A stretch of DNA of 64,000 nucleotides, taken from NCBI GenBank assembly GCA_037440105.1, contig JBBIUS010000001.1, positions 28,945 to 92,944 of the forward strand, given 5' to 3'. Positions 11,638 to 61,188 of this stretch are shown one piece after another. The translations under genes were made by a program, and so were the position numbers. The notes under the pieces were generated by a model. The model saw only the letters and a program-made list of their open reading frames with translations, was not told the DNA's origin and searched no databases. The number at the start of each line of letters is the position of its first letter. Positions within the stretch are counted from its first letter, which is position 1. Source of the stretch: Candidatus Falkowbacteria bacterium. Its GTDB lineage: Bacteria > Patescibacteriota > Patescibacteriia > XYB2-FULL-38-15.

Positions 11638-12738
11638 ATGGCAACTCAAAATGGTTTAAAATATTGGATAGCTTTTTCTCGGTTTCCTAAAATTGGCTCA
11701 GTAAGGCTTTTAAAACTTTTAAATTATTTCTCTTCAATGGAAGAAGCCTGGCAGGCTTCTTCCATTGATTTAATTAAAGCTGGTCTGGAAGAAAACGTAA
11801 TCCAGGAATTTTTTATCAAAAAGCAAGAAATTAATCCGGACCGAGAGTTAGAAGAATTAAAAAAAGAAAACATTAAAGTTGTCACAATAAAAGATGAAAA
11901 CTACCCCTCCCTACTCAAAGAAATTTGGAATCCGCCAGCCCTTCTTTATTATAAAGGGACTTTAGAAAAAGAAGAAAAATTTTCCATTGCCATAGTTGGG
12001 ACTCGAAAAATTACAAATTACGGCAAGCAAGTTACAGAAGACCTAGTGCGAGAACTCGCTTTAAATGGAATTACAATTGTAAGCGGTATGGCTTTGGGTA
12101 TTGATACAGTCGCCCATCAAACAGCTCTTGCCTCTGGTGCAAAAACAATCGCTGTTTTGGGCTCTGGTATTGATACAGCAAGTATTTACCCTTCTCAAAA
12201 TCGATATTTAGCTTCAAAAATCGCTGAAAATGGAGGAGCTATTATTTCAGAATATCCAATTGGCACTCTTGCCATGCCTCAATATTTCCCTCACCGCAAC
12301 AGAATCATTTCTGGGCTTTCACTTGGGACTTTAGTCGTTGAAGCAGCAGAAGAATCAGGCGCTTTAATTACCGCTAAATACGCCCTTGACCAAAACCGCG
12401 AAGTTTTTGCCGTTCCAGGCAGCATCTATAGCCCTGCCTCAATTGGTCCAAATAATTTAATAAAAATGGGAGCCAAACCGGTGACAAAAGCGACTGATAT
12501 TTTAGAAACTTTAAATCTTACTCAAGTAACAAATTTTATTCAATCTCAAAAAATTGTTCCAGAAAGCCAAGAAGAAGCAAAACTTCTACAATTTCTTTCT
12601 TTTGAGCCTGTCCATATTGACAAACTCATTGCCCTTTCAGGACTTGACGTCCAAAAAACAAATAGTACACTTACGATTATGGAAATGAAAGGGAAAGTAA
12701 AGAATCTTGGAGGGATGAACTATGTGCTAGCGAAGTAA
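11638..12738 (+). CDS. dprA: DNA-processing protein DprA
   Basis: VGTRKITNYG, SGMALGIDTVAHQ, GSGID, FPHRNRIISGLS, VVEAAEESGALITA, VFAVPG, C-terminal wHTH. Start ATG 11638. Confidence 0.92.
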   Translation: MATQNGLKYWIAFSRFPKIGSVRLLKLLNYFSSMEEAWQASSIDLIKAGLEENVIQEFFIKKQEINPDRELEELKKENIKVVTIKDENYPSLLKEIWNPPALLYYKGTLEKEEKFSIAIVGTRKITNYGKQVTEDLVRELALNGITIVSGMALGIDTVAHQTALASGAKTIAVLGSGIDTASIYPSQNRYLASKIAENGGAIISEYPIGTLAMPQYFPHRNRIISGLSLGTLVVEAAEESGALITAKYALDQNREVFAVPGSIYSPASIGPNNLIKMGAKPVTKATDILETLNLTQVTNFIQSQKIVPESQEEAKLLQFLSFEPVHIDKLIALSGLDVQKTNSTLTIMEMKGKVKNLGGMNYVLAK

Positions 12739-12815: not shown

Positions 12816-15122
12816 ATGAACCTCGTTATCGTCGAATCCCCTACAAAAGCAAAAACAATTTCAAAATTTTTAACAAAAGACTTTAAGGTTGAGTCTTCTT
12901 TTGGCCATGTCCGTGACCTGCCGGAGTATGAGATGGGGATTGATATTGAACATGATTTTAAGCCGCATTATGTCGTCCCGCGCAAAAATCAAAAAATCGT
13001 AAACAACCTTAAAAAAGCGTCTCAAAAAGCAAAAAATGTTTATTTTGCCACTGACGAAGACAGAGAGGGCGAAGCAATTGCCTGGCACCTTGCTCAAATT
13101 TTAAAACCAAAAGCAGAGCAAATCAAACGAATCGCCTTTCATGAGATCACGCGCGAAGCAGTCCTTGAAGCAATAAAAAATCCGCGCTCTATTGATTTAA
13201 ATTTAGTCAATGCTCAGCAAGCAAGGCGGATTTTGGATCGCTTGGTTGGTTATGAACTTTCCCCTTTTCTCTGGCGAAAAGTTGCTAAAGGCCTTTCAGC
13301 AGGGCGCGTTCAATCAGTGGCCGTCCGATTGATTGTCGAAAGGGAAAGAGAAATCCAAAATTTTAAACCGCAGGAATATTGGACTATTGAAGCAAGGTTA
13401 AGCAAGGTTAGGCAAGGAATGGCAAGGAGTAGCAATGGTGAAAAAACAACCCTGCTCAACCCCGCTAAACCCTACTCAACCCCACTAAACTCTGATACAT
13501 TCATTGCCAAGCTTTATAAAATTGATGGCGCGGTTTTGGATAAATTTGATATTGCCACCAAAGAAAAAGCAGAAAGAATTCTCAAGGACCTCGAGGGCCG
13601 AAGTTATACAGTAGTTGATGTCCAAAAAAAAGAAAAAAAGAGGACGCCATTGCCTCCTTTCACAACCTCTACTCTGCAGCAAGAAGCAAACCGTCAATTT
13701 GGCTTTTCTGCCAAGCAAACAATGGTAATTGCCCAACAGTTGTATGAAGGAATAAATCTCGGTCCAGAAGGTTCAATTGGCTTAATTACTTATATGCGAA
13801 CTGATTCAGTCAATCTGGCAGAAAAGTTTTTAAACGAAACGCGCAAGTTTATTTCGGTGTCCTTCGGCGATAAATATTTGCCCGCATCTAGTCGGCGTTT
13901 TGCCACAAAATCAAAATTAGCTCAAGAAGCCCATGAAGCAATCCGGCCAACCGATCCAAATCGAAAACCGGACGATATCAAACAACACTTAGACGATAGT
14001 CAATATAAACTTTATAATTTAATTTGGCAGCGGGCTATTGCTTCTCAAATGGCAGAAGCTTTGCTCATTAGCACAACTGCAGATATTGAAGCAAAAAAAA
14101 TGGAAATCAGTAATCAAAAATCTAAAATATCCTCCTATATTTTTCGAACCACCGGCTTAACAATTAAATTCGACGGCTTTTTAAAAGTTTACGGTTCAAG
14201 CCAGGAATTAATCCTCCCACCGCTCGAGGTCAATGAACCGTTGGACTTAATCAAATTAACTCCTATCCAACACTTTACTCAACCGCCAGCCAGGTATTCT
14301 GACGCATCACTAGTTAAGGCGCTTGAAGAACACGGCATTGGCCGCCCGTCAACCTACGCACCGACTATTTCAAATATTATTGAACGTGGCTATGTTGAAA
14401 GAATCGAAGGCCGCCGCCTGAAGCCAAAAGAAATTGCTTTTTTAGTAAACGATCTTTTAGTCCAGCACTTCCCGCAGATCGTTGACTATAAATTCACGGC
14501 TCGAATGGAGGACGATTTAGACGAAATTGCTCAAAGAAAAAAAGAATGGGTTCCAATAATTCGAGAATTTTATATTCCCTTTAAGGAAAATCTTAATAAA
14601 AAATATCAAGAAATCAGCAAAAAAGAACTTACTGAAGAAAAAACAGAAGAGATTTGCGAAAAATGCGGCGCTCCAATGGTTATAAAAACTGGACGCTACG
14701 GAAAGTTTTTAGCCTGCAGCGCTTTCCCAAAATGCAAAAATGTCAAACCGCTCGAAAAACCCACACCATCTGAGGCAGAAACCACTGACGAAAAATGCGA
14801 AAAATGCGGCGCTCCAATGGTTATAAAAACTGGACGCTACGGAAAGTTTTTAGCCTGCTCAAAATATCCGGAATGTAAAAATGTTAAACCGCTTATAAAA
14901 TCAACCGGGCTAACCTGCCCTCAGTGCGGCAAGGGAGAAATAGTTGAACGCCGTTCAAAACGCGGCCGCACCTTTTATTCCTGCAGCCGATACCCTAACT
15001 GCAAATTTGCCCTTTGGTCGCGCCCAACCGGCGAAAAATGCCCAAAATGCAATAGCCTTTTGGTCCACGGAAAAAAAGACATGGTTGTTTGTTCAAATAA
15101 AGAATGTGATTATAAAGAGTAA
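12816..15122 (+). CDS. topA: DNA topoisomerase I
   Basis: TOPRIM (LVIVESPTKAKTI, DEDREGEAIAWH), catalytic Tyr region TYMRTDS, four C-terminal Cys4 zinc ribbons. Confidence 0.96.
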   Translation: MNLVIVESPTKAKTISKFLTKDFKVESSFGHVRDLPEYEMGIDIEHDFKPHYVVPRKNQKIVNNLKKASQKAKNVYFATDEDREGEAIAWHLAQILKPKAEQIKRIAFHEITREAVLEAIKNPRSIDLNLVNAQQARRILDRLVGYELSPFLWRKVAKGLSAGRVQSVAVRLIVEREREIQNFKPQEYWTIEARLSKVRQGMARSSNGEKTTLLNPAKPYSTPLNSDTFIAKLYKIDGAVLDKFDIATKEKAERILKDLEGRSYTVVDVQKKEKKRTPLPPFTTSTLQQEANRQFGFSAKQTMVIAQQLYEGINLGPEGSIGLITYMRTDSVNLAEKFLNETRKFISVSFGDKYLPASSRRFATKSKLAQEAHEAIRPTDPNRKPDDIKQHLDDSQYKLYNLIWQRAIASQMAEALLISTTADIEAKKMEISNQKSKISSYIFRTTGLTIKFDGFLKVYGSSQELILPPLEVNEPLDLIKLTPIQHFTQPPARYSDASLVKALEEHGIGRPSTYAPTISNIIERGYVERIEGRRLKPKEIAFLVNDLLVQHFPQIVDYKFTARMEDDLDEIAQRKKEWVPIIREFYIPFKENLNKKYQEISKKELTEEKTEEICEKCGAPMVIKTGRYGKFLACSAFPKCKNVKPLEKPTPSEAETTDEKCEKCGAPMVIKTGRYGKFLACSKYPECKNVKPLIKSTGLTCPQCGKGEIVERRSKRGRTFYSCSRYPNCKFALWSRPTGEKCPKCNSLLVHGKKDMVVCSNKECDYKE
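13391..13490. repeat. Family-C-like word-hairpin element lying in frame inside topA
   Basis: agcaaggttaagcaaggttaggcaaggaatggcaaggagtagc ... ccctgctcaaccccgctaaaccctactcaaccccactaaac. It encodes ARLSKVRQGMARSSNGEKTTLLNPAKPYSTPLN. Confidence 0.65.
14655..14858 (+). repeat. Tandem duplication (141-nt period) of a topA zinc-ribbon module; 63 nt are identical
   Basis: tgcgaaaaatgcggcgctccaatggttataaaaactggacgctacggaaagtttttagcctgc occurs at 14655-14717 and again at 14796-14858. Confidence 0.9.
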
Positions 15123-57198: not shown

Positions 57199-57369
57199 TT
57201 AGCAGCCAATTTTTCCTACGAAGCAGAAAAGAAAATGCGCTTCTTTTTCTTTTTCTCTTGGCTCTGGTAAAAATGAACCGCCGTTTTCATTCGTCTTAGA
57301 TGTTTTTCTGATTTTTTCTTCGCTCTCATGAGGCTGCTGTCCATTGTTTCCTCGGTCCTCCTTCTTCAT
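57199..57369 (-). CDS. Unannotated 56-aa hydrophilic sORF
   Basis: Hand translation: MKKEDRGNNGQQPHESEEKIRKTSKTNENGGSFLPEPREKEKEAHFLFCFVGKIGC. GGAAGGAGGG lies 5 nt before the ATG. It falls below the 60-aa ORF-track cutoff. Confidence 0.55.
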   Translation of the reverse strand: MKKEDRGNNGQQPHESEEKIRKTSKTNENGGSFLPEPREKEKEAHFLFCFVGKIGC

Positions 57370-57398: not shown

Positions 57399-57434
57399 AA
57401 AAAACAAGACCGCTCCGGATTTCGTCGGAGCGGT
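57399..57434 (-). promoter_or_regulatory. Leader terminator hairpin with an upstream antiterminator partner (57468-57477)
   Basis: ACCGCTCCG-n8-CGGAGCGGT + CTTGTTTTTT. TCGGAACGGT upstream pairs 9/10 with the 5' arm. Confidence 0.6.
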
Positions 57435-58305: not shown

Positions 58306-58335
58306 AAATAAAAAACTGCGCATATTTGCGCAGTC
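58306..58335 (-). terminator. Intrinsic terminator after the 63-aa sORF
   Basis: ctgcgca-n4-tgcgcag followed on the minus strand by a T run. Confidence 0.75.
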
Positions 58336-58353
58336 CATTTTTTCTGGTGCACC

Positions 58354-58545
58354 CTACCTTATCTTTCTGATAATTCCCAAAATTCTTGCTGGTTCGCCAA
58401 AAGGATTAGTAAGAAATTCCTCATCATAATCATCCTGACTGACGGCCCTCTGATGCTTAAAATCAGGTTCTTCATGTTCTTCGCAGTGCCATTCTCCTCT
58501 CTCCCATTCTGGTCTTCCGCGAGGCGCACCTAATTTTTTCTCCAT
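58354..58545 (-). CDS. 63-aa acidic sORF
   Basis: ORF track: MEKKLGAPRGRPEWERGEWHCEEHEEPDFKHQRAVSQDDYDEEFLTNPFGEPARILGIIRKIR. AAAGGAGGG lies 5 nt before the ATG. Confidence 0.6.
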   Translation of the reverse strand: MEKKLGAPRGRPEWERGEWHCEEHEEPDFKHQRAVSQDDYDEEFLTNPFGEPARILGIIRKIR

Positions 58546-58579
58546 GATTCCCTCCTTTCAAAAAATTTTTCTTCTTAAA

Positions 58580-58608
58580 ACAAAAACTGACCGTTTTATA
58601 GCGGTCAG
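58580..58608 (-). promoter_or_regulatory. Leader terminator hairpin with an upstream antiterminator partner (58630-58641)
   Basis: CTGACCG-n8-CGGTCAG + TTTTTGTTTT. AGCGGTTAGTTC upstream pairs 12/12 (one G-U) with GAACTGACCGCT, which contains the terminator 5' arm. Confidence 0.6.
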
Positions 58609-58706
58609 TTCAATCATTAAAATAAAAATGAACTAACCGCTTTGGTCAGCAATAATGCAAATTAAAACTATGCTGTCTCTTTTTACTGTGGAAAACATAC
58701 GCTAGA

Positions 58707-58735
58707 ATAATAGCAAAAAATATTTTTAAAGTCAA
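58707..58735 (-). promoter_or_regulatory. Sigma-70-like promoter TTGACT-17-TATTAT
   Basis: The minus strand reads TTGACTttaaaaatattttttgcTATTAT. Confidence 0.6.
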
Positions 58736-58781: not shown

Positions 58782-59717
58782 CTAATTGTTAATTATCAAT
58801 TTTTCTCCATTGCTTAAAATTTTTATATCGCCATTTTTATCTGTGCGCAAAATCTTTACTCCCATTTTTTCTAGCCGATTCACAACCGTCTGGCTCGGGT
58901 GACCGAACTTGTTTTTTGCCCCCACCATAATAACTGTGATTTTTGGCTGGACTTTATCCAAAAATTTATAGCTGGTTGCGTCTTTGCTCCCATGATGCGC
59001 CACTTTCAAAACATCAACTTTTAAATCAACGCCCTCGCTAATTAATTTTTCCTCCACCTCACTTTCAGCATCGCCGACAAATAAAAATGAGGTTCTGCCA
59101 AAAATTAATTTACTGACAATTGAGGTATTATTTAAATTTTCTACTCTTCTCTCTGCTAAATTTTCCAATGGGTAGAGAATTTCTAATTTTAAATTTTCAT
59201 CAAAATTAATAACCTGGCCAGCCTGAGCAATTTCAATTGGCATATTCTGCTTACTAATTTCTCTTAACCATTCCAAATATTCTGGCGTTGTATGTATCAC
59301 ACCGGTTGTTAAGATTTTTTTTACTTTATATCTTTTTAAGACCTCAACCAATCCGGTCAGATGATCAGCGTGAGGATGAGTTAGAATTACAAGATCGATT
59401 TCTCTTTCAAAAAATGGAAGGTTTCGGCCGAGTTTATAAATTATTTTATTATCCGGACCACCGTCAATCAAAATCTTTTGCTGCTTCGGCGTTTTAATCA
59501 AAATTGCGTCTCCCTGCCCAACGTTAAAAAAATTTACTTCTAAATTGCTCGCCTCTCCCCACGAATAAAAAAACGCTATACCAAATAAAAATAAAACAAC
59601 TGCAAATAAACTGCCTACCCTTAAGAAAAATTTACTAGTTTTGAATTTTGAATTATAATTTTGCATTTTGTATCTTGAATTTTGAATTTTTCCTCTGCCA
59701 CCAAATGAATCCGCCAA
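58782..59717 (-). CDS. comEC: ComEC C-terminal part: TM anchor + metallo-beta-lactamase domain (separate ORF)
   Basis: VGQGDAILI, HPHADHLTG, VAHHGS. The likely start is ATG 59666 (MQNYNSKF...) rather than 59717. Confidence 0.85.
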   Translation of the reverse strand: MADSFGGRGKIQNSRYKMQNYNSKFKTSKFFLRVGSLFAVVLFLFGIAFFYSWGEASNLEVNFFNVGQGDAILIKTPKQQKILIDGGPDNKIIYKLGRNLPFFEREIDLVILTHPHADHLTGLVEVLKRYKVKKILTTGVIHTTPEYLEWLREISKQNMPIEIAQAGQVINFDENLKLEILYPLENLAERRVENLNNTSIVSKLIFGRTSFLFVGDAESEVEEKLISEGVDLKVDVLKVAHHGSKDATSYKFLDKVQPKITVIMVGAKNKFGHPSQTVVNRLEKMGVKILRTDKNGDIKILSNGEKLIINN

Positions 59718-61188
59718 TAATTAAATAGGCTATTGTAAGTAATACCCAATGAATCTTTCCTATTTGAACAGAGGCCCAAGGAATTTTTGAAAAAAACTCT
59801 GCTACTTTAATAATATAACTTAAAAGAAACCATGCCAACCAACCTAAAATTTGACCTAGACCAAGAGAAAGCATGCCGCAAAATACAGCGATAAATCCCA
59901 CAGCCATAGTAGTTGGGATAATAAATAAAATCAAAACATTAGCCAAGGGCGCAACAAAAGAAAGCCGGCCAAAATTATACAAAATCAAAGGCAAGGTTAA
60001 GATAATGGCAGACATCGTCGTAATAAAAGAATCTTTAATGCCAAGCGTTTGCGGCAATTTTCTAAAATATCTCTCAAAAATAGGCGATAAAAATATCAAA
60101 CCAATTGTTGCAGCAAAAGATAGTTGGAAAGCAATATCAAAAACTAAAATCTTTGAATTAAAAATAAGCATTGAGGCTCCGGCAAAAAGCAAAGCATTTG
60201 TTACTCGGCTTAGTCGACCTTCTCGTTCAGCCAAAAGAACTAAACCACCCATGATTGCAGCCCGTACTACTGATGGCTGCGCGCCGGCGATAATAACAAA
60301 AAACAAAATGCCTAAAAGGGAAATCCAAAAAGATTTTTTACGAGCAATTCCAAAACCGCAAGTAAGTTTGGAAATCAGAAGGGCGAGAATCGTAATATTA
60401 TATCCGGAAATAGCAATAATGTGGGTTGTTCCAGTGGCATTAAATTTATCCATTAAATCTTGAGGGATGCCGCGCCTTGCTCCGTAAAGCAAGCCGCCTA
60501 AAAATGATGCTTGGGGTTCTGGTAAAATTCTCCCTACCACTGAAACAAATTTAGTTTTAGCAGATAAAAGCACGCTGATTAATTTATTCCCCAATCCGCT
60601 GCTTAAAAATTTAATCTCTGGCCAATAACACAAAGAGTAAATATTTTCTTTGGCTAAATATTTATCGTAAGCAAAATCGTTTACCGGCTCAGGTTTTTTA
60701 AGCTTACATTTTATTTTCAATTCATCGCCGTAACGGTACTCTGGATATAATTTAGTAATAACCAAAACATTGCCACTTACTTTGCTCCAATTATCCCCAA
60801 TTTTTAATTTTTCATTTTTAATTTTTAATTTAACGTGGTCTGCCCTTATGTCTGGTTCAGCATTTATTATTCCAATAAAAGTTACTTCACTTTCGTTATA
60901 AAAATGAATCTCGCTTTGATCGCCAGCAGGCAAATCAAAGTCGTACCTTAAAATTCCCAAAAATAAAAAAATCCCTCCCAGCCCAGCAATTACCCAAATT
61001 TTTTTAGACCAACCGAACAAAAGTGCTGCACAACCTCCCAAAAAAATTAAAAAACTTACAAAAAGTGGAAGAGAAAAATATGAACCTGCTCCCACGCCTA
61101 AAATAAAAAAGAGACAGGAGTAGAAAAATATTTTGGACTTTGTCACGAAAGGAAGTAACGCGTAACGGGTAACGCGTAACGCGTACAA
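59653..61188 (-). CDS. comEC: ComEC N-terminal part: DUF4131-like + competence channel domain (separate ORF)
   Basis: Multi-TM. ISGYNITIL, AGAQPSVVRAAIMG. The ORF-track N-terminus MYALRVTRYALLPF is encoded by repeat B, so the true start may be GTG 61146. Confidence 0.85.
   Translation of the reverse strand: MYALRVTRYALLPFVTKSKIFFYSCLFFILGVGAGSYFSLPLFVSFLIFLGGCAALLFGWSKKIWVIAGLGGIFLFLGILRYDFDLPAGDQSEIHFYNESEVTFIGIINAEPDIRADHVKLKIKNEKLKIGDNWSKVSGNVLVITKLYPEYRYGDELKIKCKLKKPEPVNDFAYDKYLAKENIYSLCYWPEIKFLSSGLGNKLISVLLSAKTKFVSVVGRILPEPQASFLGGLLYGARRGIPQDLMDKFNATGTTHIIAISGYNITILALLISKLTCGFGIARKKSFWISLLGILFFVIIAGAQPSVVRAAIMGGLVLLAEREGRLSRVTNALLFAGASMLIFNSKILVFDIAFQLSFAATIGLIFLSPIFERYFRKLPQTLGIKDSFITTMSAIILTLPLILYNFGRLSFVAPLANVLILFIIPTTMAVGFIAVFCGMLSLGLGQILGWLAWFLLSYIIKVAEFFSKIPWASVQIGKIHWVLLTIAYLIIGGFIWWQRKNSKFKIQNAKL

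Follow-up and report, generated by a model that had tools for sequence, protein, structure and literature searches.

The 64-kilobase (kb) stretch of DNA presented above, called the window throughout, is AT-rich, with a guanine-cytosine (GC) content of 36.7%, and the relatives of its ndk gene (Parcubacteria-like metagenome-assembled genomes) place it in the Patescibacteria, the candidate phyla radiation (CPR). On the minus strand the order is leuS, the N-terminal part of comEC, the metallo-beta-lactamase (MBL) part of comEC (58782–59717), a compact unit designated module 2, ndk (58239–57625), a second unit designated module 1, and the gene for the proline transfer RNA (tRNA-Pro; 56899–56827). 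The present analysis concerns module 2 and its probable function as a leader-peptide attenuator. The coordinates of both modules, of the promoters and of the genes of this locus all refer to the minus strand; lengths are given in nucleotides (nt), base pairs (bp) and amino acids (aa). The parts of module 2, including its open reading frames (ORFs) and its Shine–Dalgarno sequence (SD), are as follows.

58735–58707, minus strand: sigma-70-type promoter, TTGACT (58735–58730), 17-nt spacer, TATTAT (58712–58707), 10/12 match
58715–58714, minus strand: extended −10 TG of this promoter (promoter scan)
58698–58633, minus strand: leader ORF MFSTVKRDSIVLICIIADQSG and stop, 21 codons, its ATG 8 nt past the −10 hexamer
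58671–58651, minus strand: codon run ATA GTT TTA ATT TGC ATT ATT (I V L I C I I)
58650–58644, minus strand: region 1, GCTGACC, complementary to region 2 and to region 4
58641–58629, minus strand: region 2, AGCGGTTAGTTCA, the 5' strand of the antiterminator
58628–58619, minus strand: U-rich tract after region 2, a likely pause site
58612–58600, minus strand: region 3, TGAACTGACCGCT, common to the antiterminator and the 5' arm of the terminator
58593–58577, minus strand: region 4, CGGTCAG plus the U run TTTTTGTTTT, intrinsic terminator with region 3
58608–58577, minus strand: terminator, CTGACCG (58608–58602), 8 nt, CGGTCAG (58593–58587), TTTTTGTTTT (58586–58577)
58558–58550, minus strand: SD AAAGGAGGG, 4 nt ahead of the ATG of the small ORF sORF2
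58545–58354, minus strand: sORF2, 63 aa, acidic, ATG at 58545
58336–58313, minus strand: closing terminator hairpin GGACTGCGCAAATATGCGCAGTTT, extending to 58297 with its T run (terminator scan)

The initial annotation had described this unit as a promoter, a switchable terminator, an SD, a small ORF and a closing terminator, and each of these parts was found where it had been placed, the set occurring jointly above chance. The terminator scan called a hairpin of 10 pairs at 58611–58584, and AGCGGTTAGTTC (58641–58630) pairs with GAACTGACCGCT (58611–58600) at 12/12 positions, including one G-U, with a 13th pair possible between A58629 and T58612. The predicted energies are −8.2 kcal/mol for the 7-bp hairpin 1:2, which is followed by the U tract, −20.4 kcal/mol for the 13-bp antiterminator 2:3 and −14.5 kcal/mol for the terminator 3:4, which consists of 10 bp and a U run. 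The claimed competition between antiterminator and terminator was thus upheld, region 3 being part of both helices, with −20.4 against −14.5 kcal/mol. The further claim of a mutually exclusive switch stood in so far as 2:3 and 3:4 do compete, but the switch is not a plain two-state one: region 1 nearly repeats region 3 and is thereby able to pair with region 4 as well. The predicted fold of the free RNA is the nested structure 1:4 + 2:3 (−28.4 kcal/mol), in which a hairpin still abuts the U run, and we infer that region 4 would be left unpaired only when a ribosome is parked on region 1. The leader as a whole folds with z = −5.4 (0/200 shuffles were as good), and terminator-like sites are in about five-fold excess over 4 kb, with 14 observed and 3.0 ± 2.2 expected. 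On the plus strand across 58306–58735, neither a convergent promoter nor an ORF of at least 40 aa was found.

The leader ORF at 58698–58633 had been missed by the initial annotation, and it is the sole ATG-started ORF that spans hairpin 1. Its start lies 8 nt past the −10 hexamer, and the module 2 transcript is therefore predicted to be leaderless or nearly so. The I-V-L-I-C-I-I run contains four Ile and six branched-chain residues in seven codons; it stops at 58651, region 1 begins at the very next base (58650), and the stop codon TAG (58635–58633) falls within region 2. For the register of the attenuator, the ribosome footprint sizes were taken from general knowledge. Taken together, the ATG, the codon run, the stop codon and the 1:2/2:3/3:4 geometry correspond to the classical layout of an ilvL- or pheL-type attenuator. 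The earlier statement that the unit cannot be assigned to any described class was consequently not borne out, because both leaders of the locus hold a leader-peptide ORF with its codon run in the classical attenuation position.

Codon runs of this kind are rare in the window. Among its stop-free windows in six frames, at least four Ile per seven codons occurred in 0.17%, at least six Ile/Leu/Val per seven codons in 0.20%, and at least six aromatic residues per seven codons, the arrangement relevant for module 1, in 0.027%. Only three of the 17 TTGAC-N17–19-TAnnnT sites are followed by an ATG 6–11 nt downstream, and two of these three are the leader ORFs of the modules. A generic scan of all 64 kb for a terminator, an antiterminator, an anti-antiterminator and a short ORF gave a leader-sized ORF only at modules 1 and 2, its third match with an ATG-started ORF being a 42-aa alternative frame within sORF1, beside the closing terminator of module 1. 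The third promoter site with a close ATG is found at 12679 on the plus strand, where the ATG stands 7 nt past the −10 and opens a 19-codon ORF, MEMKGKVKNLGGMNYVLAK, just before a 768-aa ORF at 12816; this short ORF has neither a codon run nor an attenuator structure.

On this footing we consider it fairly probable that module 2 is a ribosome-mediated (leader-peptide) transcription attenuator reporting the supply of charged tRNA-Ile, and it probably reports tRNA-Val and tRNA-Leu as well. Transcription would start about 7 nt past the −10, at the AUG or 1–2 nt before it, and a ribosome would load onto the leaderless 21-codon ORF, while hairpin 1:2 and the U tract probably stall RNA polymerase until that ribosome comes. 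With Ile-tRNA scarce, the ribosome would stall in I-V-L-I-C-I-I and cover region 1, leaving region 2 free to pair with region 3 over 13 bp, so that region 4 would stay single-stranded and the polymerase would continue into the SD-led sORF2. With Ile plentiful, the ribosome at the stop codon would mask region 2 and the 3:4 terminator would form. If no ribosome were present, either 1:2 with 3:4 or the nested 1:4 with 2:3 would be expected to form, a hairpin lying against the U run both ways, and termination would be the default. The output would be the 63-aa acidic orphan protein, and leakage past its own terminator would also be expected to raise the expression of ndk.

The translation signal of sORF2 is consistent with such an arrangement. 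The promoter scan revealed no credible promoter in the 39 nt from the attenuator terminator to the sORF2 ATG, so expression of sORF2 should need read-through. The motif AAGGAGGG occurs in only two copies on both strands of the 64 kb (58557 and 57381), and these are the start sites of the two small ORFs; at the same time, an SD-like motif (GGAG/GAGG/AGGA) precedes only 4/47 long ORFs in the window, which suggests that the small ORFs may rely on an initiation mode unusual for this genome. The GC content of sORF2 (0.37–0.46) is like that of ordinary coding sequence here (0.38–0.44 for ndk). Disorder is predicted for most of the protein, apart from a short helix at its C-terminus (ARILGIIRKIR), and its AlphaFold single-sequence model (predicted local distance difference test 63, predicted template modelling score 0.15) showed the C-terminal helix only and was too poor for a fold search. 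The word-indexed search of 5.8 billion proteins and the full phmmer (HMMER) search of 1.84 billion representatives each retrieved only sORF2 itself; no match was obtained in Pfam, PHROGs, PADLOC or NCBIfam, and no relative in viral contigs or phage genomes. The proposal that the two small proteins might share a profile was not supported, the BLASTP comparison of sORF2 with sORF1 giving E = 2.6. Homology to a small-ORF family of the relatives (ORF A, see below) was rejected for both (hhalign E = 0.47 for sORF2 and 0.21 for sORF1), as was the idea that the sORF2 region is a structured noncoding RNA, the fold of its messenger RNA having z = −0.43.

Module 1 (57570–57147), which had been recognized as another unit whose parts follow the same order and whose helices consist of different nucleotides, was confirmed as such. 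Its parts are as follows.

57570–57543, minus strand: promoter (promoter scan)
57531–57454, minus strand: leader ORF MQEIKKQYFLFFFFAPKLSERFLSL and stop, with a Phe run, beginning MQEIKKQYFLFFFFAP
57510–57490, minus strand: run Y F L F F F F, ending one base before the GCTCCGA arm
57487–57483, minus strand: region 1, TCCGA
57477–57465, minus strand: region 2, TCGGAACGGTTTT
57437–57425, minus strand: region 3, AAAACCGCTCCGA
57417–57409, minus strand: region 4, CGGAGCGGT, with the U run at 57408–57399
57383–57374, minus strand: SD GGAAGGAGGG
57369–57199, minus strand: sORF1, 56 aa
57177–57147, minus strand: closing terminator

This unit would be the Phe/aromatic counterpart of module 2, responding to Phe or to aromatic amino acids, and our confidence in its reading as an attenuator, which draws on comparative data, is higher than for module 2. 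Orthologs lie just downstream of ndk in nine Patescibacteria loci drawn from genome and metagenome collections (L001, L002, L003, L056, L059, L060, L061, L063 and L065). The leader ATG stands 7–9 nt past the TAnnnT hexamer in eight of these relatives and 11 nt past it in the window, and wherever it stands at the conserved position the N-terminal frame of the leader is retained, with the peptide pattern MKI[VI]S[RKQ][ND]YF[AST]F[WYFC]FF[TAV]P. Codon 12 is TTC, TAT, TAC or TGG, all aromatic, in 9/10 leaders and TGC (Cys) in L063, and the L059 leader carries synonymous TAC and TTC changes. Past the codon run the frame is lost through 1-nt indels in or just before hairpin 1, and the hairpins are retained. 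All this is what one would expect of a sensory leader peptide. In the alignment of these leaders the terminator cells are paired at 97.5% and the antiterminator at 83%, with two double-sided changes. The Rfam model Phe_leader (RF01859) scored 30.9 bits on module 1, its best match in the region and below the gathering score of 55, which we read as convergence on one design, not as membership of the family.

Several further features accompany the module 1-type units of the relatives. At position 592 of L065 the leader start codon is ACG, and an out-of-frame ATG 4 nt upstream opens another Phe-rich ORF; the ACG may reflect decay, non-canonical initiation or an error of sequencing. An SD-like AAGGAGGGA stands ahead of the terminator in the aromatic-attenuator relatives. 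In L001–L003, L059–L061, L063 and L065 (e.g., L063 1975–2470) a second conserved long hairpin, GTTTGGCGGTTGAGG...CCCAGCTGCCAAAC, follows the aromatic attenuator, and after it come two small ORFs of about 60% GC, A (GREMTxEEQRxFLAWLF..IG) and B (MCENDG...RSEPPP...SWGERIGYGF), which gave no Pfam match and show a weak third-position excess.

The conservation of the module 1-type N-terminus, MKI[VI]S[RK]NYF, beyond the needs of a bare codon run raises the question of whether the leader transcript or peptide is itself the functional product, acting as a trans-acting small RNA (sRNA) or peptide of the rnTrpL/peTrpL kind, as a nascent-chain arrest peptide or as a small hydrophobic toxin, with the control of sORF2 being secondary. 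Attenuator RNAs can indeed act in trans (PMC6614838, PMC7298713). However, at 8 residues the hydrophobic stretch of the module 2 peptide is not long enough to form a membrane helix, the module 1 peptides do not keep their C-terminal frame, and such a product would be without a known target. We regard this explanation as highly unlikely. A type I toxin-antitoxin system with a small hydrophobic toxin was rejected in particular, IVLICIIA having 8 residues against the 18 or more, approximately, of a membrane span.

A different possibility is that the switch operates independently of translation, as a riboswitch or through an RNA-binding antiterminator protein, and senses a small molecule such as a nucleotide or guanosine tetra- or pentaphosphate, (p)ppGpp. 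The alternative terminator and antiterminator helices exist and the unit adjoins ndk, which would suit this view; in the same vein, it had been proposed that both leaders might sense one nucleotide- or (p)ppGpp-type ligand. The comparison of the units points elsewhere. The helices are plain hairpins with A/U-rich linkers, no unpaired element is conserved among module 2, module 1 and the other leader types, and the features that are conserved are the ORF start and the codon run. When a riboswitch core was sought, only the promoter, the ATG, the T runs and the SD aligned between the two modules, and nothing aligned with a second aromatic leader type found in the relatives. Rfam searches at gathering cut-offs (Phe_leader, Leu_leader, the Thr, His and Trp leaders, ilvB-OMG and all riboswitches) matched only tRNAs, and a permissive E-value scan gave noise, its best hit on module 2 being lysM-TM7 with 20 bits against 61.5. 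We regard a translation-independent switch, too, as highly unlikely. The common-ligand proposal was not supported on the same grounds, there being no common unpaired core and no Rfam family at threshold, and also on the codon runs, which differ (Ile/Val/Leu against Phe/aromatic); the two modules therefore probably sense different signals.

A relaxed scan for attenuator units over all 134 fetched loci brought to light further leader types downstream of ndk: the second aromatic type (...NFWFSLYFTD...) in seven loci (L014, L078, L082, L083, L085, L094 and L095), a Leu type MTTTKALQLQKIDVRTNLLGLLLLLSYFLVVRLFR with the run LLGLLLLL in three (L117, L118 and L121), and a Val type MINNFKTTQILNVSVVVVVILVVVVLLPGCLNI with the run VSVVVVVILVVVV in L106 only. 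Where the −10 hexamer is recognizable, the leader ATG lies within about 6–11 nt of it, clearly in L117 and less so in the second aromatic type. Each of these units is followed by a strong SD and then by a single ORF or a pair of ORFs, about 50–100 aa long and unrelated in sequence (acidic or CxxC...CxxC zinc-ribbon-like), and none of these cargo ORFs has a match at the Pfam threshold. The tRNA gene, where one was detected in a fetched locus, is a nearby tRNA-Pro. In the closest relative, L055, the interval from ndk to tRNA-Pro (1540–1830) carries no cassette, in contrast to the corresponding interval of the window (57625–56827), and the ndk–tRNA-Pro interval thus looks like a variable slot for attenuator cassettes. 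A conserved element, TTCATAnGAAAnTCTTGGCAGAGAGnGCC, stands upstream of the second aromatic-type leaders in L014 (3520–3545), L082 (3932–3960) and L094 (1160–1185). It may also be mentioned, as an anecdotal observation, that the C-termini of the cargo proteins are enriched in whichever amino acid their leader run encodes: ARILGIIRKIR (58354–58545) follows the Ile leader, and HFLFCFVGKIGC, SYFFVRHP and HYFFVRRPGL follow aromatic leaders (window 57199–57369, L014 3772–3957 and L082 4215–4409).

The reading of module 2 as an attenuator has to be weighed against several observations. Both of its hairpins with T runs stand just past the comEC(MBL) stop, and they could simply be constitutive tandem terminators of comEC(MBL), as those of module 1 could be of ndk, with the 2:3 pairing a by-product of the near-repeat, the short ORF a matter of chance and sORF2 silent or expressed by a low constitutive leak. 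No other terminator is present from the MBL stop (58782) to the hairpins, both hairpins were called by the terminator scan, the free RNA would terminate in either predicted fold, and sORF2 is an orphan. These facts are what such an explanation would lead one to expect, but it leaves out of account the good promoter between the MBL stop and the hairpins, as well as the strong SD, rare in this genome, directly past the terminator. The positions of the leader ORF, its run and its stop are specific and are met with again in module 1 and four further types of leader, and the relatives conserve the codons of the leader peptide at the amino-acid level. We therefore judge tandem terminators to be an unlikely explanation.

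The remaining points against the attenuator concern the uniqueness and composition of module 2. It is a singleton: neither the ndk neighbourhoods nor blastn yielded an ortholog among 185,579 species genomes, the Joint Genome Institute (JGI) metagenomes and the 134 fetched loci, and the leader ORF of module 2 is therefore not backed by any comparison of its own. AT-rich sequence readily gives Ile and Phe codons. sORF2 is not an Ile-related gene, whereas attenuators of this kind typically control genes connected with the amino acid they sense; such a connection is a usual correlate of the class and not a mechanistic requirement. The module 1-type helices barely vary, so that covariation statistics are weak and not decisive. 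A covariance model was built from nine full-length module 1-type leaders (the window's own and those of eight relatives, L056 being incomplete at this locus); module 2 was its top non-self match in the window and in the correct register, with only 24.3 bits (E of about 0.04 by a rough calibration) against 21.9 bits for the best chance match. The proposal that the two leaders belong to one RNA class accordingly holds for mechanism and architecture and is marginal at the level of sequence and covariance. Module 2 and the second aromatic type, which has a CTGACC stem, gave no meaningful alignment, and common ancestry of the two was rejected.

The origin of module 2 is suggested by the spacing of the neighbouring genes. 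The spacer between comEC(MBL) and ndk measures about 60–70 nt in L001 and L056 and about 540 nt in the window, and a 36-nt sequence directly upstream of ndk in L055 is 92% identical to the module 2 promoter. On account of these short spacers and this promoter match, module 2 looks like a lineage-specific addition of about 480 nt between the ancestral ndk promoter and ndk. In the window ndk is preceded by a further site of this kind.

58291–58263, minus strand: ndk promoter-like site, TTGCCT, 17 nt, TATAAT, TG present (promoter scan)

A search for direct repeats on either side of module 2, such as a mobile insertion would leave, gave nothing convincing. Its closest match to module 1, and the only block common to the two, is a 28-nt stretch over the SD and the start codon, 82% identical. 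As to the flanking genes, comEC consists of two overlapping ORFs, one with the DUF4131 and Competence domains (59653–61188) and one with the metallo-beta-lactamase domain (58782–59717); in the relatives L002 and L003 the MBL part is likewise a separate ORF with its own start. Beyond tRNA-Pro lie a gene for an M50-family peptidase, rpsL, rpsG and fusA, with rpmB on the opposite strand.

To our knowledge, CPR/Patescibacteria generally lack amino-acid biosynthesis. It is conceivable, and we put it forward tentatively, that the interchangeable cassettes of this clade near ndk and tRNA-Pro, each comprising a leaderless leader peptide of the Ile, Val, Leu or aromatic kind, an attenuator, an SD and a small protein, form an amino-acid-starvation regulon read by ribosomes in bacteria that depend on a host for the amino acids they are unable to synthesize; the fast-evolving, SD-led cargo could then include effectors of starvation or of host interaction. 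If the attenuator reading is true, ultra-small host-dependent bacteria still track individual charged tRNAs by means of their ribosomes, and this monitoring is coupled to small proteins, not to biosynthesis, which would offer a concrete handle on how the supply of nutrients from hosts is sensed. It would also draw attention to short sensory ORFs that annotation has passed over and to small genes that depend on an SD. An annotator who meets a seemingly novel, riboswitch-like pair of terminator and antiterminator in an AT-rich genome should look first for a leaderless leader ORF.

Leader-peptide attenuation is known almost exclusively from phyla capable of synthesizing amino acids, where it precedes genes concerned with their biosynthesis, charging or transport, and full-text literature searches returned no report of it in CPR/Patescibacteria. 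The mechanism proposed here is already known; the novelty lies in the phylum, in the predicted leaderless start and in an orphan cargo outside biosynthesis. The enterobacterial ilvGMEDA and ilvBN operons (leader peptides IlvL and IvbL), together with trp, his, leu, thr and pheA, are controlled by leader-peptide attenuators. Module 2 resembles the ilv systems in its short leader ORF with clustered Ile/Val/Leu codons, in the overlapping 1:2, 2:3 and 3:4 helices, in the intrinsic terminator directly before the regulated ORF and in the predicted behaviour of the ribosome, which would mask region 1 when stalled and region 2 when at the stop codon. It differs from them in that its cargo is a 63-aa orphan acidic protein and not a biosynthetic operon, its leader ORF is predicted to be leaderless and without an SD, its region 1 is also complementary to region 4, and its host belongs to the CPR/Patescibacteria, with no similarity at threshold to the Rfam leader families. 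Module 1, in turn, is like the pheA and pheST attenuators (PheL, PheM) in its aromatic or Phe-run peptide, whose final ...FF[TA]P immediately precedes the hairpins, and unlike them in its Phe_leader (RF01859) score below gathering, its other cargo and its predicted leaderless start.

The closest parallel for the predicted leaderless start is provided by the leaderless sensory short ORFs of Actinobacteria, such as the mycobacterial poly-Cys ORFs (bioRxiv 10.1101/834739) and the leader peptides of trpE, leuA, ilvB and aroF in C. glutamicum (PMC3890552, PMC11857589). Common to these and to the present units are a leader peptide read from a 5'-AUG, a run of codons for a single amino acid as the sensor and several loci of the same design within a genome or lineage (the "ribulon" idea). 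The mycobacterial Cys ORFs, however, unmask a ribosome-binding site, whereas the target in module 2 would be an intrinsic terminator, and the genes controlled in Actinobacteria serve the metabolism of the amino acid being sensed, in contrast to the unrelated small proteins found here. In Sinorhizobium meliloti, the trp attenuator gives rise to the sRNA rnTrpL and the leader peptide peTrpL (PMC6614838, PMC7298713). A trans-acting role like that of rnTrpL and peTrpL has no evidence in its favour at the present locus; what module 2 does have in common with rnTrpL is a self-contained unit of promoter, leader ORF and terminator that is predicted to give a short terminated RNA.

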